Shown piece by piece: positions 1 to 16,679 of a DNA stretch of 17,145 bases. The DNA is from a virus (Duplodnaviria > Heunggongvirae > Uroviricota > Caudoviricetes). Location: IMG/VR virus record IMGVR_UViG_3300029843_000117. One strand, written 5' to 3'. Every line of letters begins with the position of its first letter. Positions within the stretch are counted from its first letter, which is position 1. A program made the position numbers and the translations under genes. A model generated the notes under the pieces. It made no database searches, was not told the DNA's origin, and saw nothing but the letters and a program-made list of their open reading frames with translations.

Positions 1-162
1 TGGATGCAGCGCAGTCAGCAAACGCTCGAACAATGGTTTGAACCCGGAACCGCCCGCGCGCTTGATGCGTTTATTGAGGGGATGACGCTGCATTTTGTCA
101 CCGACCGTAAGCCGCTATCGCGCGAGGAGATTTTGAGGATGGTTGAGAGGGTTGCAGGGTAG
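1..162 (+). CDS. 3' end of an upstream chromosomal gene (partial; start lies outside the window)
   Basis: Frame 1 is open from position 1 to a TAG stop at 160-162 (..[34 protein letters not shown]). It lies outside the inferred prophage boundary. By synteny with rybB it could be the TetR-family gene ybjK/rcdA, but that is not verified. Confidence 0.45.
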
Positions 163-178
163 TAGATAAGTTTTAGAT

Positions 179-192
179 AACAAAAAACCCAT
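179..192. repeat. Left copy of the 14-bp direct repeat; candidate attL core
   Basis: aacaaaaaacccat is identical to 17066-17079. It lies between the chromosomal gene stop (162) and the int stop (267). Confidence 0.6.
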
Positions 193-211
193 TTATGTAA
201 ACGGGTTAATG

Positions 212-244
212 AAAACAATAAGTTAGGTTAAAAACAATAAGTTA
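212..244. repeat. Two perfect 14-bp direct repeats (aaaacaataagtta) spaced 19 bp apart; possible Int arm-type or accessory-factor sites in the arm next to int
   Basis: Copies at 212-225 and 231-244, read directly from the sequence, located between the att core and the 3' end of int. The function is inferred only. Confidence 0.35.
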
Positions 245-266
245 AGTTGGTGGTCAGTGGTGGTTA

Positions 267-1319
267 TTACGGGGTAATGCCAACCGCTGCCGCCACTTTG
301 TCGCCACTTGGCAGCGTTGCCAGAGGATTGAAACGGAGCGCCGTTTCTAGATGATCCGGTGCCAGATGTGCGTAACGCATAGTCATTTTTATATCGTGGT
401 GTCCGAGAATTTTTTGTAAGGCCAGAATGTTTCCACCCGACATCATGAAGTGCGCCGCAAACGTATGGCGCAGAACGTGTGTGAGTTGACCGCGAGGGAG
501 CACGATAGACGTTTTTTCCATCACGGATAAAAATTGAAAATAGCAGTCTGTGAAGAAATTGAACCCATCAAGCGCCATGATCTCTTCGTAAAGCTCTTTA
601 CTGATAGGGATGCTTCTGTTTTTCTTCCCCTTCGTTCTGACAAAGGTAATTCGGTATTTGGTCACCTGTGAGCGGGTAAGATTTACGGCTTCACGCCAGC
701 GTGCGCCTGTGCTTAAGCATATCTTAACTACCAGTGCCAGAATTGGGTCCTGACGTTTGCAATCAGCCAGCAATTCAACAATCTGCTCATGGGTAAGCCA
801 TGCCATCTCTTTTTCTGCGATGGTGAATTTTCGCATGTTCTCCAGTGGGTTCGGATACGACCATTCGCCCAGACGGGATAGTTCGCTAAAAACACTACTT
901 AGATAGCTTTGCTCCAGGTTAATGGTGACCGGGCTTGCTCCTTTCTTCCATTTCTCGCTGAAGTAGATCTCGCCTGTCAGGCGTTTATCTCGATAGTGGG
1001 CAAACATTTTAGAGGTGAGATCGGTTGCAAGAGGATTGCCCAGAGCGTCAACCATCAACAGCAATTTGTCATAGACATGCTGCCCAGCTGTCAGAGATTT
1101 ACCATGTAGTTTGAACCATAGCTCAACCACGTCTTTCAGTGTTCGACGATCCACTGATTCACCCAGCCAGGGCTTTGCTTCGGTTTCTTCCATCGTGTGG
1201 CGCTCAAAAGCCAGTGCTTCGCCTTTGGTGGCGAATTGTTTACGCACACGACGCCCACTTCGTCCGGCGGGGTAACATTCGCAAAGCCATTTCCCTGTGG
1301 TTAGTTTTCGTACTGCCAT
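267..1319 (-). CDS. int: Phage integrase, tyrosine recombinase (P2/186 Int-like)
   Basis: 350-aa ORF. The C-terminal region has tyrosine-recombinase hallmarks (..LPRGQLTHVLRHTFAAHFMMSGGNILALQKILGHHDIKMTMRYAHLAP..). It sits next to the att core at the prophage edge. Confidence 0.9.
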   Translation of the reverse strand: MAVRKLTTGKWLCECYPAGRSGRRVRKQFATKGEALAFERHTMEETEAKPWLGESVDRRTLKDVVELWFKLHGKSLTAGQHVYDKLLLMVDALGNPLATDLTSKMFAHYRDKRLTGEIYFSEKWKKGASPVTINLEQSYLSSVFSELSRLGEWSYPNPLENMRKFTIAEKEMAWLTHEQIVELLADCKRQDPILALVVKICLSTGARWREAVNLTRSQVTKYRITFVRTKGKKNRSIPISKELYEEIMALDGFNFFTDCYFQFLSVMEKTSIVLPRGQLTHVLRHTFAAHFMMSGGNILALQKILGHHDIKMTMRYAHLAPDHLETALRFNPLATLPSGDKVAAAVGITP

Positions 1320-1320
1320 A

Positions 1321-1346
1321 AAAAGCCCTCATATCAGAGGGCTAAA
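1321..1346 (-). terminator. Hairpin plus U-tract on the minus strand between the cargo gene and the int start
   Basis: Minus strand reads agccctc-tgatat-gagggct followed by ttttt, immediately before the int ATG. May attenuate read-through from the upstream cargo gene and cI. Confidence 0.3.
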
Positions 1347-1401
1347 TTTAACTGTATATGTAACCAGTAATCAATGTGTGATTACTATGAAACATACATT
1401 G

Positions 1402-3078
1402 CTAAGCAACATGTAGTTCATCGTTGGCGGAAGTGGCTGCTTTGCGCTCCTGCTCAATAGCTAGAGACTCTCTATATTCTTTCGCCTCTGCAAACATTGT
1501 CCAGTGGGCGTTGATGTTCATGTCTTCAATAACTGATTTGATTTCTTTTAAATTTACGTTAAAAAACTCTTTTCGTGAGTTAATTTTATTGACCTGCTTT
1601 TCGTTGAAAACTTTATGCAGATGGTTTTCTAATGATGGTGCATCATCACTATAAATCATCGCATGAACATCGAACGAAAAAGGAACACTAGCATCTCCGA
1701 GTTCACGAACACGATCAAGTGGTTCAAGGCGGCGTGTCATTCCAATTTTATATACATCTTCGCCAAATGAACCAATATTACTAATGATATAGACGTGGCC
1801 TGATCTGGTTTGTTGAGCCATAGAAATAGCTCGTTGATTTTTAGCTTCAGCTTCTTCATATTTTAACTGTAGTTCAGCTATTTTTTGCTCTAAAGCTAAG
1901 CGTTGTTCTTCATTTGCAAGCATAAGTTCTTTCGTTGCTTTATTTATAGCTTGCTGAATAGCTTTTTCTTCTTTTTCAGCTTCTTTTATCGCTTTTTCAT
2001 ATTCTCTACGAGCTCTTTCCTCTTCACGAAGCTGTTCTTTAATCCTTCTTTGCTCTTCTTTTTCTTCGAGCATAATTTCATTAACTGCTACACCCCATTT
2101 TAGCTCGTTGAGTCTTGCCTGAAGATAGATGTCACTTATTTTTGCGGACCTAAAGGCAGAGCCATTGTAATTTACTAGTTGAAATGCATCTTTTATTTCT
2201 TGGGAAAGTTTTCCAAAATTGTTGTGTTTGACTTTTGATAAAATACTGTCAACTCTTCCATTGAAGGCATCCAAAACAAAGTTTATGGCAGTATTACGCC
2301 TGTTTTGCTCAACATAATCACACGAAGCAGCTTTATTAGTTTTTATTAATGATTTGGTTAACTCTCTGGCTTTTTGTAATTCCTTGCCTGCATCTGTAAA
2401 TTCATAATTTTCTGCCAGCTCATCAAGTACACTACGGTTAGGGATGATCCATTCATCACCATAACCTTCAATTTTATTTTTCATTGATTTTGCAACTGCT
2501 TCATATTTTTCTGCAAACTCTTTAGCTTCATATGCTGAACCAGCAATCTCCTTTGCTCTTTCTTCTGCATCAGAAATAATTTTTACTGCATTGTCATTAG
2601 CATTTGAGATTAGCTCATTTGCTTTATTATTAGCATTATCAAGACGTTCTTTGGCTTTCAGGCGTGCATCGCGAGCGTCTTTGGTGATTGCTATAGCTTC
2701 GCTATTAGCGTTGCTTATTGTCATCTGAGCTTGATAATTTGCTTCGTTTACTGTTTTAGCCGCCTTAATTTGGGCTTCATCTATTTTTTGCTTGGCTATT
2801 GAGTCCGCATTTTTTATCTTATTCTCTGCATCCATTACTGCGCTGTGCAATTCTTCGTATTGCCACAATGGTGCTGCTCGCCCTTCAAGCTCTGATAATT
2901 CTCGTACGGTCTGTGCTAGTTTTTCTTGATTTTCAATCAGTTGGTTAGAAAGGGCTATGTTGTTAGCTGTCAGGTTATCTATAGCCGCTTTGTGTTTTTT
3001 ACTTTGTTTAAATAATATTACAGCTAGAACAGGGGCGAGAAATGCTAATAAGAGTATAACGATGGCAAATGAATTCAT
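1402..3078 (-). CDS. Cargo protein: N-terminal transmembrane helix, long coiled-coil region, C-terminal T5orf172/GIY-YIG-like domain (DUF4041-type architecture)
   Basis: 558-aa ORF. N-terminus is hydrophobic (FAIVILLLAFLAPVLAVILF). The middle is K/E/A-rich with heptad-like pattern. The C-terminus reads GHVYIISNIGSFGEDVYKIGMTRRLEPLDRVRELG..., resembling the T5orf172 (GIY-YIG-like) signature. Visibly AT-rich relative to neighbours. A plausible RBS (aaggat) lies upstream, and it ends 20 bp before the cI stop. Confidence 0.8.
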   Translation of the reverse strand: MNSFAIVILLLAFLAPVLAVILFKQSKKHKAAIDNLTANNIALSNQLIENQEKLAQTVRELSELEGRAAPLWQYEELHSAVMDAENKIKNADSIAKQKIDEAQIKAAKTVNEANYQAQMTISNANSEAIAITKDARDARLKAKERLDNANNKANELISNANDNAVKIISDAEERAKEIAGSAYEAKEFAEKYEAVAKSMKNKIEGYGDEWIIPNRSVLDELAENYEFTDAGKELQKARELTKSLIKTNKAASCDYVEQNRRNTAINFVLDAFNGRVDSILSKVKHNNFGKLSQEIKDAFQLVNYNGSAFRSAKISDIYLQARLNELKWGVAVNEIMLEEKEEQRRIKEQLREEERARREYEKAIKEAEKEEKAIQQAINKATKELMLANEEQRLALEQKIAELQLKYEEAEAKNQRAISMAQQTRSGHVYIISNIGSFGEDVYKIGMTRRLEPLDRVRELGDASVPFSFDVHAMIYSDDAPSLENHLHKVFNEKQVNKINSRKEFFNVNLKEIKSVIEDMNINAHWTMFAEAKEYRESLAIEQERKAATSANDELHVA

Positions 3079-3098
3079 TTTAAAATCCTTTTACTATA

Positions 3099-3695
3099 TT
3101 AATTCGAGACTATTGTACTTCTTATACAAGCAACCACTTCAATATCAGAAAATGCACATTCAAAGCTATTCTCTGCTGTTGTAATTTTAATCATTCCTTT
3201 AGGAAGCCTTGTGATTTTTCGAATGGAATAGGTTCCGTCGATATTGATTAACCAGTTTCCATCAAGTACTTCAGAAAATTTTTGATCACAAATGTATGTG
3301 ACGAGTCCATCCTGAACAACAATTGGTGATGAAAGGTTTGCAGGAAGAAATGATGAATCGAAGACATATGAACCGTCTTCAATCATTTTGCCTGCGGCAA
3401 GGCGAAACTTAACAAGCTCTTCTGTAGCTGCTGTCAGCGAGCTTTGCTTAAGGCCTTGTCCGGTAGTTAACCATTTGAGGGAGGTTCCTGTTTCAAGAGC
3501 ACATTGGATTATCCAGTCAGCAGGAAATGTATCCCGCAAATACCTGTTCGCTAGTGTGCTTTTTGATACTTCCAAGTGATCAGCTAAAGCCTGTCGTGTC
3601 GTAAAGCCATAGGCTTCGACTAATCGCTCAATCGCAGCCTTACCACCTTTATTGGGATTTATTTTGATCTCACTTGGGTACTTTGATGTTGACAT
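3099..3695 (-). CDS. cI: Phage 186 CI-like immunity repressor (N-terminal HTH, C-terminal oligomerisation domain)
   Basis: 198-aa ORF with an HTH-like N-terminus (GFTTRQALADHLEVSKSTLANRYL). Size and position (divergent from apl/cII, upstream of int) match 186 cI. Confidence 0.7.
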   Translation of the reverse strand: MSTSKYPSEIKINPNKGGKAAIERLVEAYGFTTRQALADHLEVSKSTLANRYLRDTFPADWIIQCALETGTSLKWLTTGQGLKQSSLTAATEELVKFRLAAGKMIEDGSYVFDSSFLPANLSSPIVVQDGLVTYICDQKFSEVLDGNWLINIDGTYSIRKITRLPKGMIKITTAENSFECAFSDIEVVACIRSTIVSN

Positions 3696-3717
3696 ATCTC
3701 TTTTGCGATCCTAGTAT
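3689..3717 (+). promoter_or_regulatory. Candidate sigma70 lytic promoter (pR-like): TTGACA, 17 bp spacer, TAGTAT
   Basis: -35 ttgaca at 3689-3694 (overlapping the cI start codon on the opposite strand) and -10 tagtat at 3712-3717, oriented toward apl/cII. Confidence 0.4.
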
Positions 3718-3724
3718 CAGTTTT

Positions 3725-3740
3725 GTACCCAATTGGGTAC
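3725..3740. promoter_or_regulatory. Perfect 16-bp palindrome GTACCCAATTGGGTAC; candidate repressor operator
   Basis: Lies immediately downstream of the putative pR -10. A half-site-like ttgggtac recurs at 3674-3681. Confidence 0.45.
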
Positions 3741-3790
3741 TTGTCACGATTACTACAGGCTCACCACAAGCCAATAGGAGATGTTGCATC

Positions 3791-4012
3791 ATGACCCCTA
3801 ACATTTCAATAACTCTGAATACGCCACACGTCACAATCGAGCGTTATAGCGAACTTACTGGTCTTTCAATCGACACAATCAACGATATGTTGGCGGATGG
3901 TCGCATTCCTCGGCATCGTCTTCGTAAAGACAAGAAAAGAGAAAAGGTAATGATCAACCTTGCTGCTCTTACCGTTGATGCACTTACTGATTGCAATGTT
4001 GTATTCAACTAG
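3791..4012 (+). CDS. apl: Apl/Cox-like excisionase and transcriptional regulator
   Basis: 73-aa ORF from an internal ATG, with RBS aggag at 3776-3780. It is the first gene of the rightward operon opposite cI. The ORF-track start at 3674 would overlap cI and is unlikely. Confidence 0.6.
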
Positions 4013-4044
4013 TTCCATTTTGGGATACATCAGAGGTGTCGACC

Positions 4045-4554
4045 ATGTTTGATTACCAAGTTTCCAAACATCCACATTTTGATGAAGCCTGTCGTGCATT
4101 CGCACTGCGCCACAATCTGGTGCAACTGGCAGAACGTGCGGGCATGAATGTGCAGATTCTGCGGAACAAGCTGAACCCAGCTCAACCTCATTTATTAACC
4201 GCACCAGAAATCTGGCTGCTTACCGATCTGACTGAAGATTCAACGTTGGTAGATGGTTTTCTGGCACAGATTCATTGTCTGCCATGTGTACCGATTAATG
4301 AGGTAGCAAAAGAGAAACTGCCGCATTACGTCATGAGCGCAACTGCAGAGATCGGGCGTGTTGCAGCAGGTGCGGTATCTGGTGATGTAAAAACTAGTGC
4401 CGGTCGTCGTGATGCTATCAGCAGCATTAACTCTGTAACACGACTGATGGCTCTGGCTGCTGTTTCATTGCAAGCCCGTTTACAGGCTAATCCTGCGATG
4501 GCGAGTGCAGTTGATACCATGACTGGCCTTGGTGCTTCATTCGGTTTGCTGTGA
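4045..4554 (+). CDS. cII: CII-like lysogeny establishment regulator
   Basis: 169-aa ORF starting [24 protein letters not shown], with RBS agaggtg at 4031-4037. Size and position match 186 CII. Confidence 0.6.
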
Positions 4555-4561
4555 GGTGTTT

Positions 4562-4858
4562 ATGCTGACGAAAGAACCATCATTTGCATCGCTGCTGGTA
4601 AAACAAAGCCCGGCAATGCACTACGGTCACGGCTGGATCACGGGTGAGGATGGAAAACGCTGGCATCCATGTCATTCACAAGATGAATTGCTGTCTGAAT
4701 TGACCACGAGGAAACGGAGAAAGTCCAAATGTATGCGGCAGAAAGTGAAGTGGTTTATCAGTTTCGTTACAGAGGGGAGAGTTATTCAGTACCTGAAGGT
4801 GATTTGCTCTGTTGCTATCCGTCATTGTCGGGCGATGGCAGTTACTTTTTCACGTTAA
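4562..4858 (+). CDS. Hypothetical early protein (3' extent uncertain)
   Basis: ATG with RBS gaggtg at 4553-4558. The N-terminal part looks protein-like, but the last ~40 codons overlap the next ORF and look like out-of-frame read-through. Confidence 0.35.
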   Translation: MLTKEPSFASLLVKQSPAMHYGHGWITGEDGKRWHPCHSQDELLSELTTRKRRKSKCMRQKVKWFISFVTEGRVIQYLKVICSVAIRHCRAMAVTFSR

Positions 4859-4953
4859 AGGATGGGACGTTTTTACGGGGAGAGCAGGTTAAAGAGACGA
4901 TACGAAAAAATGTATCTCCTCTTGAGCGTTACCGTAAGAACAAAGAACGATAG
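4729..4953 (+). CDS. Hypothetical early protein
   Basis: 74-aa ORF, RBS ggag about 10 nt upstream, balanced composition. Overlaps the previous ORF by 130 nt. Confidence 0.45.
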   Translation: MYAAESEVVYQFRYRGESYSVPEGDLLCCYPSLSGDGSYFFTLKDGTFLRGEQVKETIRKNVSPLERYRKNKER

Positions 4954-4975
4954 CTGCGTTTGGGGGATATGAAGT

Positions 4976-5317
4976 ATGGCAATTAATGGCGCTGCAGCAA
5001 CTGTTCCATTAAGCCCCGGTGAACGCCTGAATGGACTTAATCACATTGCGGAGTTAAGGGCGAAAGTTTTTGGCCTGAATATTGAGTCAGAGCTTGAGCG
5101 GTTTATTAAAGATATGCGTGATCCACGGGATATCAATAATGAACAAAATAAACGGGCACTGGCTGCCATATTCTTTATGGCAAAAATTCCAGCTGAACGT
5201 CATAGCATCAGCATTAATGAGCTGACCACTGACGAAAAGCGGGAGCTGATTAAAGCAATGAATCATTTTCGTGCAGTGGTGAGCTTATTTCCCAGACGGC
5301 TAACCATGCCGAATTAA
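4976..5317 (+). CDS. Hypothetical early protein
   Basis: 113-aa ORF with RBS ggggga 8 nt upstream, in the same orientation as the early operon. Confidence 0.55.
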   Translation: MAINGAAATVPLSPGERLNGLNHIAELRAKVFGLNIESELERFIKDMRDPRDINNEQNKRALAAIFFMAKIPAERHSISINELTTDEKRELIKAMNHFRAVVSLFPRRLTMPN

Positions 5318-5384
5318 CCAACTAATGAAATTAATGGCGTAAACCCGCCGGGCATCCCTTTATCTAAATTCAGGAGAATTGATT

Positions 5385-5618
5385 ATGCGTAATATTGAAA
5401 CCCTCACGACTAAAACCGGACCGGATGACGCAGGGCTTAATATTTTACTGACAGAGGCTCGTCTGGAAGAACGCCGGGCAAGGGCTGAAGCAATGGCTGC
5501 TCGCCTTGATAGCCTGGCGTGTCATATCTCATCCCGCCAGCTAAACCACGTGGAAGCGGCAGAACTGCTGCGCGTGACTGCTGAAGCAATCCAGAACGAA
5601 GCGCAGGAGATCCACTAA
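5385..5618 (+). CDS. Hypothetical early protein
   Basis: 77-aa ORF from ATG at 5385, with RBS caggag at 5371-5376. Its stop overlaps the next start (ATAATG). Confidence 0.55.
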   Translation: MRNIETLTTKTGPDDAGLNILLTEARLEERRARAEAMAARLDSLACHISSRQLNHVEAAELLRVTAEAIQNEAQEIH

Positions 5619-5845
5619 TGGCTGATGCAATGGATCTCGTACAGCAGCGCGTTGAAGAAGAACGCCAGCGCCATATCCGTGCAGCCCGTGCCAAATCACC
5701 GGGCGTGTCACGCGTACTTTGCATTGAATGTGAAGCGCCAATTCCGCCAGCACGACGCCGCGCCATTCCGGGAGTGCAGCTTTGCATTACCTGTCAGGAA
5801 ATCGCAGAACTGAAAGGCAAACATTACAACGGAGGTGCTGTATGA
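5618..5845 (+). CDS. TraR/DksA-family C4-type zinc-finger protein
   Basis: 75 aa with CIECEAP..(17)..CITCQ, a CxxC-N17-CxxC arrangement typical of phage and plasmid TraR-like proteins. Translationally coupled to its neighbours. Confidence 0.75.
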   Translation: MADAMDLVQQRVEEERQRHIRAARAKSPGVSRVLCIECEAPIPPARRRAIPGVQLCITCQEIAELKGKHYNGGAV

Positions 5846-6699
5846 GCACCATCCTGAAATGGGCGGGAAATAAAACCGCCATTATGCCAGAACTGAAAAA
5901 ATACCTTCCTGCTGGCCCGCGACTGGTTGAACCTTTCGCGGGTTCCTGTGCTGTGATGATGGAAACGGATTATCCCAGCTATCTGGTTGCGGATATTAAT
6001 CCTGATTTAATCAACCTCTATAAAAAGGTTGCCGCTGATTGTGAATCGTTTATATCTCGCGCCAGAGTTTTATTTGAGATCGCAAACAGGGAGGTGGCTT
6101 ATTACAACATAAGGCAGGAGTTTAACTGCTCAACTGAAATTACTGATTTCATGAAAGCGGTATATTTCCTGTATCTCAATCGTCACGGTTACCGTGGTTT
6201 ATGTCGCTATAACAAGAGCGGGCATTTCAACATTCCCTACGGTAATTATAAAAATCCGTATTTCCCTGAAAAAGAACTTCGCACATTTGCAGAAAAAGCC
6301 CAGCGAGCAACGTTTATCTGCGCCAGCTTTGATGAAACGCTGGCGATGTTGAAGGCGGGAGATGTGGTGTATTGCGATCCGCCATATGACGGTACGTTTT
6401 CCGGCTATCACACTGATGGTTTCACTGAAGATGACCAGTATCACCTGGCATCCGTTCTTGAACATCGGTCATCAGAAGGACATCCGGTCATTGTTTCTAA
6501 CAGTGACACATCCCTGATCCGTTCGCTGTATCGCAATTTTACTCACCACTATATCAAGGTAAAACGCAGCATCGGTGTGGCAGCTGGCGAGGGTAAATCA
6601 GCAACAGAAATCATTGCTGTTTCCGGGCCGCGCTGCTGGATGGGATTTGATTATTCGCGTGGCGTGGATAGTTCTGCCGTGTACGGAGTACGTGCATGA
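5842..6699 (+). CDS. dam: DNA adenine methyltransferase (Dam-like, N6-adenine)
   Basis: 285 aa from ATG 5842, with RBS ggaggtg at 5831-5837. Contains the SAM-binding motif ILKWAGNK near the N-terminus and the catalytic DPPY motif ([10 protein letters not shown]). Confidence 0.85.
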
Positions 6700-9136
6700 G
6701 TCATGCCGATATGAACAACTGCTGCGGCTTTAACGAGGCTGCCGCAGCATTCTCATGGAACAGCCCGAAAAAGGCCATTAACCCTTATCTGGACCCGGCG
6801 GAAGTTGCGCCGGTTTCTACGCTTTCAAACCTGATCACTCTGTACGCTGCCGATAACGAGCAGGAACAGTTGCGCCGCGAGGCACTGAGTGATCAGGTCT
6901 GGGAGCGTTATTTCTTTAATGAATCACGTGATCCTGTCCAGCGCGAAATGGAGCAGGATAAGCTCATTAGCCGGGCAAAGCTGGCGCATGAGCAGCAGCG
7001 TTTTAATTCAGACATGGTCATTCTGGCGGACGTCAACGCCCAGCCTTCCCATATCAGCAAGCCGCTGATGCAACGTATTGAATACTTCAGCAGCCTGGGC
7101 AGGCCAAAGGCTTATTCCCGCTATTTACGTGAGACGATTAAGCCATGTCTGGAACGACTGGAGCATGTACGCGACAGTCAGCTATCTGCATCTTTTCGCT
7201 TTATGGCAAGCCATGAAGGGCTGGACGGCCTGCTGATCCTGCCTGAAATGAGTCAGGATCAGGTGAAACGCCTGTCCACCTTGGTAGCTGCGCATATGAG
7301 TATGTGCCTTGATGCAGCTTGTGGTGATTTGTATGCCACCGATGACGTTAAGCCAGAAGAAATCCGCAAGACATGGGAAAAGGTGGCAGCGGAAACCCTG
7401 CGTCTGGATGTCATCCCACCTGCGTTTGAGCAACTCCGTCGGAAAAGAAACCGCCGTAAACCCGTGCCGTATGAACTCATTCCGGGTTCGCTGGCGCGTA
7501 TGTTGTGCGCCGACTGGTGGTATCGGAAATTATGGAAGATGCGTTGCGAATGGCGGGAAGAGCAGTTGCGCGCTGTTTGCCTGGTCAGCAAAAAAGCATC
7601 TCCTTATGTCAGCTATGAAGCCGTGATGCATAAACGTGAGCAGCGCCGTAAGTCGCTGGAGTTTTTCCGTTCTCATGAACTGGTGAACGAAGACGGCGAC
7701 ACGCTGGACATGGAGGATGTGGTAAACGCCAGCAGCAGCAACCCTGCGCATCGCCGCAATGAGATGATGGCCTGTGTTAAAGGTCTGGAGCTTATCGCGG
7801 AAATGCGCGGTGACTGCGCCGTTTTCTACACTATCACCTGTCCGTCGCGTTTCCATTCCACGCTAAATAACGGCAGACCAAACCCGACCTGGACAAACGC
7901 GACGGTAAGACAAAGCAGCGATTATCTGGTCGGCATGTTTGCTGCATTTCGTAAGGCGATGCACAAAGCCGGGTTGCGCTGGTATGGCGTGCGGGTGGCT
8001 GAGCCGCATCATGATGGCACAGTTCACTGGCACCTGTTGTGTTTCATGCGCAAAAAAGACCGCCGTGCCATCACTGCATTACTGCGTAAGTTTGCCATCC
8101 GTGAAGACCGCGAGGAGCTGGGCAATAACACTGGGCCGCGCTTTAAGTCTGAGTTGATTAACCCGCGCAAAGGAACGCCGACAAGCTACATCGCGAAATA
8201 TATCAGTAAGAACATTGACGGTCGTGGTCTGGCTGGCGAGATCAGCAAGGAAACGGGTAAATCTCTGCGTGATAACGCTGAATACGTGAATGCCTGGGCG
8301 TCTCTGCATCGTGTTCAGCAATTCCGCTTCTTTGGTATTCCGGGGCGTCAGGCTTACCGTGAACTTCGCTTGCTGGCTGGTCAGGCGGCAAGGCAACAGG
8401 GTGACAAAAAAGCAGGTGCGCCGGTACTGGATAACCCGCGTCTTGATGCCATTCTGGCTGCTGCTGATGCTGGTTGTTTTGCCACCTACATCATGAAGCA
8501 GGGCGGCGTACTGGTTCCCCGTAAATATCACCTCATCAGAACCGCTTATGAAATCAACGAAGAGCCGACCGCCTATGGCGATCACGGCATTCGTATTTAT
8601 GGCATCTGGTCACCCATTGCAGAGGGCAAGATCTGCACTCATGCAGTGAAGTGGAAAATGGTTCGTAAAGCCGTTGACGTTCAGGAGGCGGCAGCCGACC
8701 AGGGCGCTTGCGCCCCTTGGACTCGTGGCAATAACTGTCCCCTTGGACTCGTGGCAATAACTGTCCCCTTGCTGAAAATTTGTACCAACAAGGGAAAGAC
8801 AAATCAGCTGATGGGGATACCAGAACGGATATCACCCGCATGGATGACAAGGAATTGCACGATTACCTGCACAGTATGAACAAAAAAGAGCGTCGGGAAC
8901 TGGCTGCAAGGTTACGCCTGGTGAAACCGAAACGGCGTAGAGACTACAAACAGCGAATTACAGATCATCAGCGACAGCAGCTCGTCTATGAACTGAAGTC
9001 CAGAGGATTTGATGGCAGCGAGAAAGAGGTCGATTTACTCCTTCGCGGCGGCAGCATTCCGTCAGGAGCAGGCCTGCGTATTTTCTATCGGAACCAGCGT
9101 TTGCAGGAAGATGATAAGTGGCGGAACCTGTATTAA
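6696..9136 (+). pseudogene. A: Replication initiation endonuclease A (P2 gpA-like, HUH rolling-circle initiator), frameshifted by a 26-bp tandem duplication
   Basis: The frame-0 ORF 6696-8879 (727 aa) carries the HUH-like motif TVHWHLLCF and the tyrosine motif YIAKYISK. Downstream, ORF 8780-9136 in frame 2 continues the protein exactly if one 26-bp repeat copy (8739-8764) is removed, which would give a continuous ORF of about 804 aa. Confidence 0.75.
8713..8771. repeat. Tandem direct repeat: 26-mer ccccttggactcgtggcaataactgt, two full copies plus a partial 7 bp
   Basis: 8713-8738 and 8739-8764 are identical base for base, and 8765-8771 repeats the first 7 bp. 26 is not a multiple of 3, so the duplication shifts the A reading frame. 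Confidence 0.9.
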
Positions 9137-9228
9137 TTACGCGGGTTAACAATTCGTGCTCTTAATAATACCAGGTATATCAGGCTGATGAACGTAAAAA
9201 AACGTTTTACATCAGTAAGATTATTATA

Positions 9229-9248
9229 TACTGTAAATATAAACAGTG
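9229..9248. promoter_or_regulatory. LexA box (SOS operator): TACTGT-N8-ACAGTG
   Basis: tactgtaaatataaacagtg matches the consensus CTGT-N8-ACAG with an AT-rich spacer. It overlaps a -10-like tatact/tatata and lies about 45 bp upstream of the ORF at 9290. Confidence 0.7.
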
Positions 9249-9289
9249 GTTATGCATACAGTATTGCTTGTGGTGTCATAGGAGGAAAG

Positions 9290-9478
9290 ATGCAGGACTA
9301 TTTTTTGGAGTCTTTGAAGCTCCAGCGCATTGATTTTTTTCTTAAGCTTGTAGCGGCTAGTGAGTGTAGTGATGAAGAGAAGGGGCTGGCCCTGCAGTGG
9401 GTTTCTGAACTGACAGATGAACTCATGGCAAAAATCAGAACCCACGAATACAACCGCTCAATGGATGTCATCAGCTGA
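9290..9478 (+). CDS. Small hypothetical protein, first gene of a putative SOS-inducible operon (Tum-like region)
   Basis: 62 aa from ATG 9290, with RBS aggagga at 9280-9286, downstream of the LexA box. Confidence 0.5.
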   Translation: MQDYFLESLKLQRIDFFLKLVAASECSDEEKGLALQWVSELTDELMAKIRTHEYNRSMDVIS

Positions 9479-9488
9479 GGTGACTTTT

Positions 9489-9722
9489 ATGCGCATTGAA
9501 ATAATGATCGATAAAGAGCAGAAGATTAGCCAGTCTACCCTGGACGCCCTTGAATCCGAGCTTTACCGCAATCTGCGCCCCCTGTATCCCAAAACGGTAA
9601 TTCGCATTCGCAAAGGTAGCTCTAACGGTGTGGAACTGACCGGACTGCAACTGGACGAAGAAAGGAAGCAAGTGATGAAAATTATGCAGAAGGTGTGGGA
9701 AGACGACAGCTGGCTGCATTAA
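9489..9722 (+). CDS. DinI-family protein (DinI/Tum C-terminal-like)
   Basis: 77 aa: MRIEIMIDKEQ..LDALESELYRNL..YPKTVIRIRKG...KQVMKIMQKVWEDDSW. Resembles E. coli DinI as recalled (MRIEV..IDALAGEL...WESADDW). RBS gaggtg at 9477-9482. Confidence 0.7.
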   Translation: MRIEIMIDKEQKISQSTLDALESELYRNLRPLYPKTVIRIRKGSSNGVELTGLQLDEERKQVMKIMQKVWEDDSWLH

Positions 9723-9752
9723 GAAACGTTGCCCCCAAGAGGATTCATTCTG

Positions 9753-9923
9753 ATGGGGGACTATTTTGGGCAACGAGTGAAACGAGGCGTTAGGTGGACG
9801 GCCATTTTGATAAGTGATCGTCCGCTTTTTGTTCTGAGTTCAAGCGATGGATTTAACACACTGGTTGAAGCAGAAGTATCTAAGTTCAATTTATATTATT
9901 TGAAGGGCACTGGTCTGATGTAG
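9753..9923 (+). CDS. Small hypothetical ORF
   Basis: 56 aa from an internal ATG with RBS aagagga at 9737-9743. No recognisable motif. Confidence 0.25.
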   Translation: MGDYFGQRVKRGVRWTAILISDRPLFVLSSSDGFNTLVEAEVSKFNLYYLKGTGLM

Positions 9924-10009
9924 TACGATTTTTGCCGGAGATGGCATGTTCTATATTGATCTCATCCATATAATGATTGGTATTATTAGCTTAGTTTAAA
10001 GAGGATTGA

Positions 10010-11587
10010 ATGGATATCAACTATGTTGTTTCAAAAATGGGGTTCGTAGATGATCTTATTAATGCAGGTTCATTTGATTCTGCCTATAAAAATGTAAAGG
10101 ATATTCTTAACGGTATCGATGAGATAAATACAATCAAAGAAAATAGAATAATTATATTATCTAATTTGGCCGGAAATCTTATTGATATCGGAAGTTTTAG
10201 TAATGTAAAAAATATAGCGGAGGAAGGCTTAAATATCTTTATAAACAATAAAAATGAATTTCTGACTATAATGAAAGAATCCTTATATTACTATAACTTG
10301 GCAAATGGAATGAGCGCAGTTCTTGATTTTAATCCTAATGACAATGCAGATATTGATAGTTTCATTAAGCTGAATGATGTAAAAAATAATTACTGGAAAG
10401 CGTTTAAACTTTCACAAGAAGATGGATGGGTGCCCCCTGATTTAATAGTTAATCTAGCTAATGTATTAAAAAAACAATATCGTATATCTGAATCAATGGA
10501 TTATTATGAACAAGCAATATCTATTGATAACTCAATTCCTCAGGCGTGGGTAAACAGATCTGAGGCATTAGAATTGCTTAATGAATTATCTACAACATAT
10601 ACATATAAAATGATTAAAGAAGTTATTCGAGGTTATGAGTGTGCAATAAAGTCAGGGAAATGTTTTCCTTCATGGAAGGTTGCTCTTCAAAGAAAAATAA
10701 AGTACAACGAAAGTATATTGAGTGAATCATGTGTATATGGCATAGAGGATATAAGTACAGATGAAAGGCTCACGCAGGAGGAGTATGATACTTTATCAAA
10801 CTACCAGAGGTTTTGTATAGATAATAATCTAATGTTGTCTGATCATTCGCTATATTGCAATTGTTATGCGTCATCTAAAGATAATATAACTATTGCTACC
10901 ACCGAGGAAGGTGTGTTTGGTGATTTTATAGTGCCAATGGAAATGGTGTTAAATAGACTTAAAGCTGAGTATTCCTTAGCACGAAAAATGTTTTTTGAAT
11001 ATAAGGTTGATAGTGAGTTTTTTGATGAGGATTCGGAGGTATGTTATTCTGAATTGTATAATGGAGAAATATTGTATGAAAATGTTGAGAAGTTAAGGGT
11101 TGCATTTAGAGCTTGCTTTGGTATCTTGGATAAAATAGCAGTTGCTCTGTGTCAATTATTTGATTTAAAACCAGATAGAGGACATATATACTTTCATAAC
11201 TTCTGGCGGATTAGTGATGAAAAAAGAAAGCTTAAAATAAACAAAATAAATAATAAAGGATTGCTGGGTTTGTTTAGTATTGCTATGGATTTGAATGATA
11301 AAAATGGTGAGCTTGCTTTTTTTAAAGAATGGAGGAATGATTTAGAACATAAACTGTTAGTTATTCACGAGAAAGACATGTTAGTTGATTTATATAATTC
11401 TTATGGGTTTTTTGATGAGGTGAGGTTTATTGAGAAAGAAAAGTTTGAGAAACAGCTCTTACAACTCATGAAAATTGTGAGATCAGCCGTTATTCTTTTT
11501 GTGTTTACCATACGTATAGAGGGGAAAAAAAGTATTCCTAAAGATATGTTGACCATTAAAAATACCATCGAGAGAAAAGTATTGTAG
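10010..11587 (+). CDS. Cargo protein with TPR-like N-terminal region and C-terminal HEPN-like domain (Rx4H motif); candidate abortive-infection or defence RNase
   Basis: 525-aa ORF, strongly AT-rich. RBS gagg at 10001-10004. TPR-like segment SMDYYEQAISIDNSIPQAWVNRSEALELLNE. C-terminal FFKEWRNDLEHKLLVIHEKD contains R-x4-H, the HEPN signature. A perfect -10 TATAAT lies at 9969-9974. Confidence 0.8.
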   Translation: MDINYVVSKMGFVDDLINAGSFDSAYKNVKDILNGIDEINTIKENRIIILSNLAGNLIDIGSFSNVKNIAEEGLNIFINNKNEFLTIMKESLYYYNLANGMSAVLDFNPNDNADIDSFIKLNDVKNNYWKAFKLSQEDGWVPPDLIVNLANVLKKQYRISESMDYYEQAISIDNSIPQAWVNRSEALELLNELSTTYTYKMIKEVIRGYECAIKSGKCFPSWKVALQRKIKYNESILSESCVYGIEDISTDERLTQEEYDTLSNYQRFCIDNNLMLSDHSLYCNCYASSKDNITIATTEEGVFGDFIVPMEMVLNRLKAEYSLARKMFFEYKVDSEFFDEDSEVCYSELYNGEILYENVEKLRVAFRACFGILDKIAVALCQLFDLKPDRGHIYFHNFWRISDEKRKLKINKINNKGLLGLFSIAMDLNDKNGELAFFKEWRNDLEHKLLVIHEKDMLVDLYNSYGFFDEVRFIEKEKFEKQLLQLMKIVRSAVILFVFTIRIEGKKSIPKDMLTIKNTIERKVL

Positions 11588-11909
11588 TATATTTTCATCG
11601 AGCGATGAAACGGTCTGTTTTTCTTTATAGTTTTGTCATAAAAAAGAGATTTCCTGCTTAAAATTTGGCTATTACAGAGCAACTATGTATGTTCCTCGCT
11701 CACAGTAGAGCTTCATCTTTGTAAGTCTGTATGTTTCGTTTTTCAAGTGGTCATTCAGATACGGACTTTCACTTCTCTTAGACAGTGCATGACTATGCTG
11801 CATGAAATCGCATGATCGTTTAAGGATCGTTTTTGCTAAGGCTCGCCAGAACTAGCGGGCTTTTACGTAGAACATGCAGGTGCATGAAAACCACTACATA
11901 AAGCGGGCA

Positions 11910-11928
11910 GGCGTGGCGGGGATACGAG
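11910..11928. other. Candidate cos site (cohesive-end sequence) of the P2/186 type
   Basis: ggcgtggcggggatacgag begins with GGCGTGGCGGGGA, matching my recollection of the 186/P2 19-nt cohesive end (GGCG[A/T]GGCGGGGAAAGCA.). The location between the accessory region and the 3' end of Q matches the P2 map. Confidence 0.5.
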
Positions 11929-12133
11929 CGCGCACTCTGGGGTAAAATGGTCAAAATCCACCGCAATTTACTGGCTCGGGAACGTAGTTAGTTTTGTAGG
12001 TATAAACGGCTCTCACGTTAGATAGGCATGCAGGATGTGTTAAATCGTTGTGATGAAGTTAACGGTGACTGAGACAGTTTAGGTCTAAGATATAACTTCT
12101 GGGTTAGTTAAAAATTGGAATAGTAAGACATTT

Positions 12134-15406: not shown

Positions 15407-16174
15407 ATGACAGTGAAAGCAAAGCGTTTTCGCATCGGGGTGGAAGGTGCCACCACCGATGGACGCGAAATCCAGCGTGAATGGCTGGAACAGATGGCAG
15501 CCAGCTACAACCCGGCGGTGTATACCGCGCTGATTAACCTTGAGCACATCAAGTCTTATCTGCCGGACAGCACCTTTAACCGCTACGGCAAGGTGACGGC
15601 GCTGTTTGCTGAAGAAATTACGGAAGGTCCGCTGGCAGGCAAGATGGCATTGTATGCCGACGTTGAGCCAACGGAGTCCCTGGTGGAACTGGTGAAAAAA
15701 GGCCAGAAATTATTCACCTCTATGGAAGTCAGCCCGAAGTTTGCTGATACGGGCAAAGCCTACCTGGTCGGCCTGGCTGCCACTGATGATCCAGCCAGTC
15801 TGGGTACGGAAATGCTGACATTCAGCGCCAGTGCAGCCCATAACCCGCTGGCAAACCGCAAGCAGAATCCTGCCAATCTCTTTACCGCTGCAGAGGAAAC
15901 GGTGATCGAACTGGAAGAAGTCCAGGATGACAAACCGTCCCTGTTTGCCCGCGTCACGGCGTTGTTTACCAAAAAAGAGCAGTCCGATGACGCCCGGTTC
16001 GCTGATGTGCATAAGGCCGTGGAGCTGGTCGCCACTGAGCAGCAGAACCTGAGCGCACGCACCGAAAAATCCCTGTCTGAGCAGGAAGAACGCCTGTCTG
16101 AACTGGAGACTGCTCTGCAGGAGCAGCAATCTGTTATTCATCCGGCAGGGGCAGGGCAAAAGCGCCACTGGTAA
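15407..16174 (+). CDS. O: Capsid scaffolding protein (P2 gpO-like), probably 3'-truncated
   Basis: 255 aa. The N-terminus MTVKAKRFRIGVEGATTDGR resembles P2 gpO (..KFFRIGVEGDTCDGR as recalled). P2 gpO is about 284 aa, and this ORF ends abruptly (..HPAGAGQKRHW*) just before a D-like fragment. Confidence 0.7.
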   Translation: MTVKAKRFRIGVEGATTDGREIQREWLEQMAASYNPAVYTALINLEHIKSYLPDSTFNRYGKVTALFAEEITEGPLAGKMALYADVEPTESLVELVKKGQKLFTSMEVSPKFADTGKAYLVGLAATDDPASLGTEMLTFSASAAHNPLANRKQNPANLFTAAEETVIELEEVQDDKPSLFARVTALFTKKEQSDDARFADVHKAVELVATEQQNLSARTEKSLSEQEERLSELETALQEQQSVIHPAGAGQKRHW

Positions 16175-16184
16175 ACCACTGCCG

Positions 16185-16679
16185 GTGATCACTATCACAC
16201 GGAAGGACGGCGACAGTCACCGCTTTACCCTGGCAGATCGCGGAGCCTACACGGGCGTAATTGCCAGCTGGTTGCATACCCGCGAACCCGCGAAGAAAGA
16301 AAGCACCACGGTGAAGCGTAAGCGCAGGACTAAGAAGCAGAAGAAAGAGCCGGAAGCGAAGCAGGGCGATTACCTGGTGGGGACGGATGAAAACGTGCTG
16401 GTACTTAATCGCACTTATGCCAACCGGAGCAACGCCGAACGAGCGGCGAAAATGCAGTGGGAACGCCTGCAACGCGGTGTTGCGTCATTCTCGCTACAAC
16501 TGGCGGAAGGTCGGGCAGATCTCTACACGGATATGCCTGTGAAGGTCAGTGGCTTTAAACAGCCGATAGATGATGCGGAATGGACCATTACCACCCTGAC
16601 ACATACTGTCAGCCCGGATAATGGTTTTACGACCAGTCTGGAGCTTGAAGTGAGGATTGATGATTTCGAAATGGAATGA
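16185..16679 (+). pseudogene. D: C-terminal fragment of tail protein D (P2 gpD / late control D family)
   Basis: 164-aa ORF immediately upstream of ogr, as D is in P2. It has no proper start context (GTG at 16185, upstream frame open but unrelated). Several kb of structural genes expected between O and D are absent. Confidence 0.55.

Follow-up and report, generated by a model that had tools for sequence, protein, structure and literature searches.

A frameshifting duplication of the predicted nick-site core in replication gene A of a 186/P2-family prophage, and related duplications at the same bond

The IMG/VR virus record IMGVR_UViG_3300029843_000117 (Caudoviricetes), a stretch of 17,145 nucleotides referred to here as the window, contains a 186/P2-family prophage remnant located between rcdA and ybjL of Escherichia coli, as in strain MB7671. 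Its gene A, which encodes the replication initiator and nicking endonuclease, carries a perfect 26-bp tandem duplication near its 3' end, and alignment with the phages P2 and 186 indicates that the duplicated unit is the nick-site core of a P2/186-type rolling-circle replication origin. The lesion is very probably a derived, frameshifting duplication of this core. The account favored overall, with modest confidence, is that the duplication was driven by the nick that the A protein makes at the origin inside its own gene.

The repeat was located by Tandem Repeats Finder and by direct reading of the window. It occupies positions 8713 to 8771 on the plus strand, with a period of 26, 2.3 copies, 100% matches, and a score of 118. 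In this phasing the unit is CCCCTTGGACTCGTGGCAATAACTGT, present as two 26-bp copies followed by the 7-bp partial third copy CCCCTTG, which is the arrangement described in an earlier sequence-only reading of this DNA. A perfect periodic run of 59 bases in 17 kb cannot be chance. The list of open reading frames (ORFs) contains a long ORF of 727 amino acids (6696 to 8879) and an overlapping ORF of 118 amino acids (8780 to 9136), and in silico loss of one 26-bp copy joins them into a single ORF of 804 amino acids, as had been anticipated; three copies would give 696 amino acids, and zero copies would give 675. The 26-bp insertion is a +2 frameshift after residue 683, so that the mutant and restored A proteins have 683 residues in common, the mutant ends in an aberrant tail of 44 residues, and 121 native residues are lost. 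The replacement of the native C terminus through a frameshift had been recognized from the sequence, with a tail of 46 residues that is corrected here to 44. On the basis of the ORF list, translation, and Pfam, the frameshifted gene A (683 native plus 44 aberrant residues) extends from 6696 to 8879 on the plus strand, and the native-frame remnant of its C terminus, comprising 121 codons and a stop, extends from 8771 to 9136 on the same strand, out of frame and still stop free. A full-length uninterrupted A frame is lacking (727 versus 804 amino acids), making the gene a pseudogene of the Phage_GPA family.

Nick features are annotated in RefSeq at nucleotide 29892 of P2 and at nucleotide 28576 of 186, the latter "by similarity with P2." In the alignment, the P2 mark falls on the first G and the 186 mark on the second G of a conserved GG, and both bracket one G^G bond (the caret marks the nick). 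The nick sequences read CGCCTCG^GAGTCCTGTCAATAACTGT in P2, CCCTCTCG^GAGTTCTGTCAATAACTGT in 186, and CCCCTTG^GACTCGTGGCAATAACTGT in the window. Each base of the 26-mer aligns with one in the annotated nick sites of P2 and 186, with the GG at the nick in common and an invariant CAATAACTGT. When phased at the nick (between 8719 and 8720), the unit GACTCGTGGCAATAACTGTCCCCTTG opens with the base immediately 3' of the nick and closes with CCCCTTG, repeating the heptamer that lies directly before the nick. The first copy of the origin core, placed by the P2/186 origin alignment, lies at 8720 to 8745 on the plus strand behind the predicted nick G8719^G8720. The second copy, which is the inserted 26 bp, lies at 8746 to 8771 on the plus strand; it begins at a nick-like site (between 8745 and 8746) without a hairpin and ends in the third CCCCTTG. 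A GC-rich hairpin read from the sequence, GGGCGC-TT-GCGCCC (8702 to 8715, plus strand), ends 4 nt 5' of the nick and precedes copy 1 only. Single-sequence folds revealed an equivalent GC hairpin, built from different stem sequences, in P2, in 186, and in several further lineages; in consensus folding, the stems shift between lineages in the gapless alignment, and the support for the hairpin comes from the single-sequence folds only. The nick falls at codon 675 of 804 here, 619 of 761 in P2, and 611 of 694 in 186. The 58-bp segment from -24 to +34 around it is invariant in the 91 unique single-copy haplotypes from IMG/VR that were used for analysis of the origin flanks. The expectation that the origin lies within the 3' part of A is thus borne out, and the origin is found at the duplicated unit itself. 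Cleavage by A at G8719^G8720 is supported indirectly by the common boundary of independent duplications, described below. Because copy 1 retains the upstream hairpin, the nick, and the next 26 bases, one complete origin (hairpin, nick, and downstream core) probably remains, so that the lesion, which was suspected to affect the origin, does double the origin core and probably leaves the origin intact. Five metagenome contigs (L075, L076, L077, L080, and L097) carry an unrelated element in which a perfect hairpin, GGGGTGCCAATAAC...GTTATTGGCACCCC, is followed by TGTCAATAACTGT; this may be a different rolling-circle origin with the CAATAACTGT motif.

The 727-amino-acid product matches the Pfam family Phage_GPA (PF05840) with an E value of 5.8e-128 and 426.9 bits (cutoff, 31.4), with residues 188 to 510 covering profile positions 1 to 321 of 321. 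The translation contains an HUH-type metal-binding motif and two closely spaced tyrosines, which match those of the P2 and 186 A proteins and which are taken to be the catalytic residues, as in P2 A. The catalytic Phage_GPA domain (188 to 510) is left intact by the frameshift. The lost 121-residue C terminus shows a ratio of nonsynonymous to synonymous polymorphism (pN/pS) of 0.15 over 20 haplotypes, which indicates that it is under purifying selection as a selected part of the protein, and two motifs in it are common to 186 A and the more distant A of an IMG/VR contig (L019, IMG/VR 2531839591). Because the lost residues are under purifying selection, we infer that A is no longer a working initiator. 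Programmed ribosomal frameshifting was considered as a rescue of A, and evidence for it was not found. Together with the deletion of capsid and tail genes, the frameshift would make the prophage a dead passenger.

Single-copy relatives are abundant. Phage Cartapus gpA has one copy and an A protein of 804 amino acids. In E. coli MB7671, the same remnant is present with a single copy of the 26-mer and an uninterrupted 804-amino-acid A; left of the origin, it differs from the window at 10 of 8,712 bases when the duplication is collapsed. Matches to the region in dozens of phages of Klebsiella, Escherichia, and Salmonella likewise have a span that is 26 bp shorter and an A protein of 804 amino acids, and the 26-bp duplication is present in none of the best 30 of 84 matching phage records (spans of 772 to 776 bp for an 801-bp query). 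In a census of 5,426 complete E. coli genomes, this origin type was found in approximately 1,250 and the duplication junction in 8, which corresponds to approximately 0.6% of the prophages with this origin. Two-copy genomes were counted with junction queries of 39 to 45 nt, which cannot be seeded by single-copy DNA; a 96-nt query was dropped because two single-copy pieces are joined into 100% coverage. The identical two-copy allele was also present in four IMG/VR contigs and three metagenome contigs, and one further IMG/VR contig has three copies. The RefSeq annotation of A was read in six of the eight two-copy genomes (S88, EC261, 19KM1863, M8, N53, and PEB20-37-A; the other two are MS7163 and PEB21-38-A), and A is marked "frameshifted" in all six. 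No complete E. coli genome in the collection was found to be identical to the whole window. The alignments with the intact 804-amino-acid A genes of Cartapus and MB7671, together with 8 duplicated genomes against approximately 1,250, indicate that the single copy is ancestral and the two-copy state is derived, in agreement with the sequence-only reading.

Duplications of other lengths occur at the same bond. Species-representative genomes, IMG/VR, and metagenome contigs were pattern-scanned for them, and unrelated low-complexity or coding repeats were removed by eye; the species-representative genomes yielded one relevant locus only. E. coli RM10809-3 has a 21-bp duplication (GACTCGTGGCAATAACTGTCC twice) without microhomology, with A in frame and annotated as intact. 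A Woeseiaceae metagenome-assembled genome and a metagenome contig have a 25-bp duplication (GAGTTC...ACGTTC twice), also without microhomology, and A is truncated. In a metagenome contig (L096), (GAGTTC)3 is followed by a 29-bp doublet with 0 to 1 bp of microhomology, outside any A frame. Further cases are a 34-bp doublet ending in CTTTTG whose left end is cut by the contig (L079), an imperfect 33-bp duplication of the nick-site core that is not clean and leaves A in frame and open (L019), and a triple 26-mer with 7 bp of microhomology and a frameshifted A (L016). The left boundary is unambiguous at G^G in the 21-bp, 25-bp, and (GAGTTC)3 cases, which have no microhomology, and is compatible with G^G in the 26-bp, 29-bp, 34-bp, and (GACTCG)n cases. 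The latter were predicted from lengths of +6 and +12 in a BLAST table, which implied hexamer repeats at the nick, and were confirmed as (GACTCG)2 and (GACTCG)3; (GACTCG)4 and (GACTCG)5 were found in further strains. In total, (GACTCG)n with n of 2 to 5 lies directly 3' of the nick in 14 of the 5,426 E. coli genomes, adding Thr-Arg repeats, and A is annotated as intact in all four of the genomes looked at (n of 2, 3, 4, and 5; 17MR471, 210205630, ETEC-2265, and 120899). Perfect hexamer doublets just 3' of the nick, of GACTTG, GAGTTC, and GAGTCC, are present in several unrelated P2-like lineages. Many hits to the hexamer pattern were excluded, being the normal P2-type GACTCG-GAGTCC.

The duplications are polar and recurrent. 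No reciprocal 26-bp deletion was found in the 5,426 E. coli genomes (versus 8 duplications) or in IMG/VR (versus 5), and searches for a duplication of the segment 5' of the nick and for a 5' hexamer doublet found none. Fourteen multi-copy alleles with enough flank were compared over 300 bp upstream and 300 bp downstream, and they fell into at least eight groups that share neither flank, one allele being 17% diverged upstream. This grouping indicates that the duplication event has recurred many times and rules out a single ancestral duplication spread by descent. In L019 (approximately 675 to 717, minus strand), where A is intact, the first copy of the in-frame 33-bp duplication is altered at the nick, with TGGTT-AGTTC in place of CTTGG-AGTTC, as if one of two nick sites had been disabled. 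In L096 (520 to 640), a short contig, the origin-like array of (GAGTTC)3 and two 29-bp units may represent decayed remains or an element that relies on the A protein of a helper.

The origin also coincides with a boundary between two ancestries of the window. Relative to E. coli MB7671, the window is 0.11% divergent left of the origin (left arm, window positions 1 to 8663) and 3.3% divergent to its right; relative to E. coli 10034940-2, it is 4.1% divergent on the left and 0.23% divergent on the right over 3 kb, and the right arm in common with 10034940-2 (window positions 8783 to 11930) includes a HEPN cargo gene. The last left-side mismatch with the right-arm parent is at 8663, and the first mismatch with the left-arm parent is at collapsed position 8757, equivalent to 8783 in the window, which places the recombination junction of the hybrid prophage between 8664 and 8782. 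With the duplication collapsed, the switch interval is 93 bp and is centered on the nick. These comparisons indicate that the window is a hybrid of two single-copy lineages joined near the nick. Haplotype pairs with full identity across 250 bp on one flank of the origin show divergence of 2.4% or more on the opposite flank in 86 to 89% of cases, compared with 5 to 35% at control boundaries elsewhere in A, which marks the origin as a sharp and general recombination boundary. This boundary could result from nick-induced recombination, from the 58-bp invariant island favoring homologous exchange, or from selection on modules.

A nick-primed route to the duplication is preferred because duplications lacking microhomology have a common boundary, because the polarity is strictly 3', because no deletions were found, and because overshoot has a precedent in rolling-circle replication. 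A nick-associated origin of the duplication is considered probable, and the specific step of extension and rejoining is proposed only tentatively. In this scheme, A would cut G8719^G8720 and stay attached to the 5' end (GACTCG...), while a polymerase would extend the free 3'-OH and displace the A-bound strand. After 26 nt, the new 3' end would again read ...CCCCTTG, which is the sequence that A normally rejoins, and A could then seal the over-extended 3' end onto the bound 5' end, so that the next replication round would fix a 26-bp duplication with its left end precisely at the nick. Shorter or longer extension before the same mistake would account for the 6-, 21-, 25-, and 29-bp duplications found elsewhere, and because of the 7-base match, +26 would be the preferred point of rejoining in this lineage. 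A precedent exists in rolling-circle plasmids, where the leading strand is normally extended approximately 10 nt beyond the nick before it terminates (Khan 2005, as quoted in PMC5037232). As would be expected of initiator-mediated illegitimate recombination, one junction lies exactly at the nick, and the polarity is toward the side copied from the 3'-OH, in small numbers. In a wider and equally tentative view, the A nick may be a self-inflicted polar mutational hot spot that generates duplications of 6 to approximately 34 bp starting from the nick, of which the in-frame ones would persist as (GACTCG)n within a functional gene A and the out-of-frame ones, including the present 26-bp one, would amount to a recurrent loss of the initiator in P2-family prophages; the replication module and the neighboring cargo (defense) hot spot would also have their main recombination boundary at this site.

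Ordinary replication slippage could yield an identical 26-bp product independently of the nick, if a nascent strand at the second CCCCTTG mispaired with the first, 26 bp back, and the interval was copied twice, its position at the origin being incidental. The event is flanked by the required direct repeat: every single-copy allele has the 7-bp repeat around a 19-bp spacer, which is a classical substrate, and all of the 26-bp duplications are in repeat-bearing lineages, with none in lineages that have CCCCCTG there. The three-copy allele and the hexamer runs beyond n of 2 also fit slippage on an existing repeat, and the left arm matches that of MB7671, which has no capsid and tail genes, implying that chromosomal replication is the main replication of this DNA. 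However, slippage usually produces deletions at least as often as duplications, and comparable reciprocal deletions are absent from the 5,426 E. coli genomes and IMG/VR. Slippage also leaves unexplained the 21-bp, 25-bp, and first-step hexamer cases, which have 0 to 1 bp of microhomology and the same left boundary, as well as the lack of 5'-side duplications, and it is regarded as a rather unlikely alternative. Several points weigh against the nick-driven account. For this window, the sequence alone does not separate slippage from a nick-primed error, since the 7-bp direct repeat makes the two products identical. The nick position is taken from the RefSeq feature annotations of P2 and 186 and from the common duplication boundary. 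The database patterns demanded a duplicated CAATAACTGT motif, which restricts the possible boundary positions, although the 21-bp, +6, and +12 variants were detected by length alone and are free of this restriction. The excess of duplications over deletions is based on approximately 8 to 10 independent events, and the array in L096 may not be a mutation but a designed arrangement. As for the inactivation of A that had been claimed at the outset, the C-terminal loss holds, and the loss of function is a deduction made with the catalytic domain intact.

The other explanations are less probable. The duplication might have come about when two related phage genomes recombined at the origin, with an A-bound 5' end of one, or its broken end at the nick, being joined to the over-extended 3' end of the other, producing the hybrid and the duplication in one event. 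In keeping with this, the window is a clean hybrid, both of its relatives are single copy, the switch interval contains the duplication, and the origin is a general boundary among haplotype pairs; in addition, the two-copy alleles of EC261, 19KM1863, and PEB20-37-A are identical over 1,500 bp upstream and have three different downstream sequences, diverging from +44 to +70. The boundary, however, could come from the invariant island or from selection on modules, most exchanges at the origin leave a single copy, and two two-copy alleles (L006 and L045) have single-copy twins identical on both flanks. Duplication is therefore possible without exchange, and the stronger proposal that it always accompanies recombination is ruled out by these two alleles. 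Because L045 has the upstream haplotype of the window and the duplication with another right arm, duplication first and exchange later is equally parsimonious, and the single-event explanation is considered improbable. It is still harder to regard the two-copy state as a working or switchable variant, with a truncated A active on a doubled origin or with changes in copy number turning prophage replication reversibly on and off. The catalytic domain is intact, copy numbers of 1, 2, and 3 all occur, the downstream frame is open in every two-copy allele, and in-frame variants at the site (+6 to +24 bp, 21 bp, and 33 bp) are annotated as intact. Off-frame alleles, however, make up only approximately 0.6% of prophages with this origin, the best 30 of the 84 matching phage records lack the 26-bp duplication, the lost C terminus is under purifying selection and has motifs common to 186 and a distant A, and a switch would serve nothing in a prophage without capsid and tail genes; this explanation is very improbable. 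Short tandem repeats are prone to misassembly, but 8 complete genomes that were sequenced independently, including the long-standing RefSeq reference NC_011742 (S88), have the identical allele, as do 8 viral or metagenome contigs with different flanking haplotypes, leaving an assembly or sequencing artifact with a negligible probability.

Gene A of the window resembles those of P2 and 186 (Peduoviridae) in its Phage_GPA family membership, its HUH and two-tyrosine motifs, and an origin in the 3' part of the gene, and the origin has the same order of elements, a GC hairpin, YYG^GA(G/C)T(C/T)(C/G), and then TG(G/T)CAATAACTGT. It differs from them in its doubled core and frameshifted gene. The C-terminal extension past the origin is 129 amino acids here, 83 in 186, and approximately 140 in P2, and Elveevirus Cartapus, rather than P2 or 186, is the nearest classified phage. 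Michel and Ehrlich reportedly described illegitimate recombination at the nick sites of phage M13/f1 and plasmid pC194 in 1986, and the geminivirus origin is a recombination hot spot. The duplications resemble these cases in having one end exactly at the nick and the other at a nick-like sequence (here CCCCTTG) or anywhere, with the origin as a hot spot. Those cases, unlike the present ones, are mostly deletions or fusions in small plasmids or single-stranded DNA viruses and were experimentally demonstrated, whereas the evidence here is comparative only and concerns short polar tandem duplications in the initiator's own coding sequence in a double-stranded DNA temperate phage. The gene A protein of phiX174 is a two-tyrosine HUH initiator whose 30-nt origin, CAACTTG^ATATTAATAAC..., is nicked after CTTG. 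This origin appears to resemble that of the window in the CTTG before the nick, an AATAAC element a few bases downstream on the nicked strand, and the polarity proposed here; no recurrent natural duplication lesion is known to have been reported for the phiX origin region. Nor, to our knowledge, has an overshoot-removal step been described for P2 A. In pT181-type plasmids, synthesis passes the regenerated nick by approximately 10 nt (Khan 2005, as quoted in PMC5037232), and if such an overshoot were kept it would give a duplication starting at the nick. In pT181 itself, the extra oligonucleotide is taken away while still bound to the spent initiator, and the lengths found here (6 to 34 nt) are more varied. 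The lesion is like the frameshift pseudogenes of decaying prophages in that a small indel disables an essential lytic gene, structural genes are lost too, and RefSeq calls the gene "frameshifted," and it is unlike them in being nonrandom, at one bond in at least eight backgrounds. As a lesion, it is an ordinary prophage pseudogene that is already flagged by annotation pipelines; the wider pattern is similar to nick-site illegitimate recombination in M13, pC194, and geminiviruses. No description of this duplication pattern in P2-family phages was found in the searchable literature.

The remainder of the window accords with a decayed prophage. The integrase gene (267 to 1319), a DUF4041/T5orf172 gene (1402 to 3078), and the CI repressor gene (3099 to 3695) are on the minus strand, and the early operon extends up to A. 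Behind A lie a small ORF and a DinI/Tum-like gene following a LexA box, an LA2681-type HEPN gene (10010 to 11587, plus strand), and portal and terminase genes on the minus strand. A truncated gpO gene (15407 to 16174) abuts a C-terminal gpD fragment (16185 to 16679), and the capsid, lysis, and tail genes are missing, so that the structural-gene deletion noted earlier is real. The description as a locked-in prophage is only relative, as the 26-bp repeat can revert by copy loss. The deletion junction is at 16126 to 16129; a similar junction in MB7671 retains 257 bp more, so that the window either underwent a second, nested deletion or was deleted independently. The regulatory layout is like that of 186, with a CI repressor, CII, Fil, and a DinI/Tum-like gene behind a LexA box. 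The LexA-box-like sequence, TACTGTAAATATAAACAGTG (9229 to 9248; CTGT-N8-ACAG), lies upstream of the small ORF and the DinI/Tum-like gene, as at the 186 p95 promoter, which suggests that the prophage was SOS inducible. Two cargo genes are at known P2 cargo positions, DUF4041/T5orf172 (MUG113) between int and CI and LA2681-type HEPN between A and portal, and both are plausibly anti-phage defense genes; at the A-portal position, relatives have different genes (HIRAN, DarT/macro, TIR, and STAS-like). A 19-bp tandem repeat, AAAACAATAAGTTAAGTTA in 1.9 copies (212 to 248), lies immediately beyond the integrase gene, close to where the left attachment site is expected.

For this genome, the frameshift has little weight, being one more step of decay after the loss of capsid and tail genes. 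If the nick-driven account is true, natural duplication boundaries would locate the nicks of P2-family phages, and possibly those of other rolling-circle origins, by sequence only, and the recurrent "frameshifted replication endonuclease" calls in E. coli annotation would be accounted for. The frequency of duplication at the G^G bond should then depend on a catalytically active A. The findings also point to the origin as the left-hand crossover in the exchange of the A-portal cargo region, with its anti-phage defense genes, among P2-like prophages.

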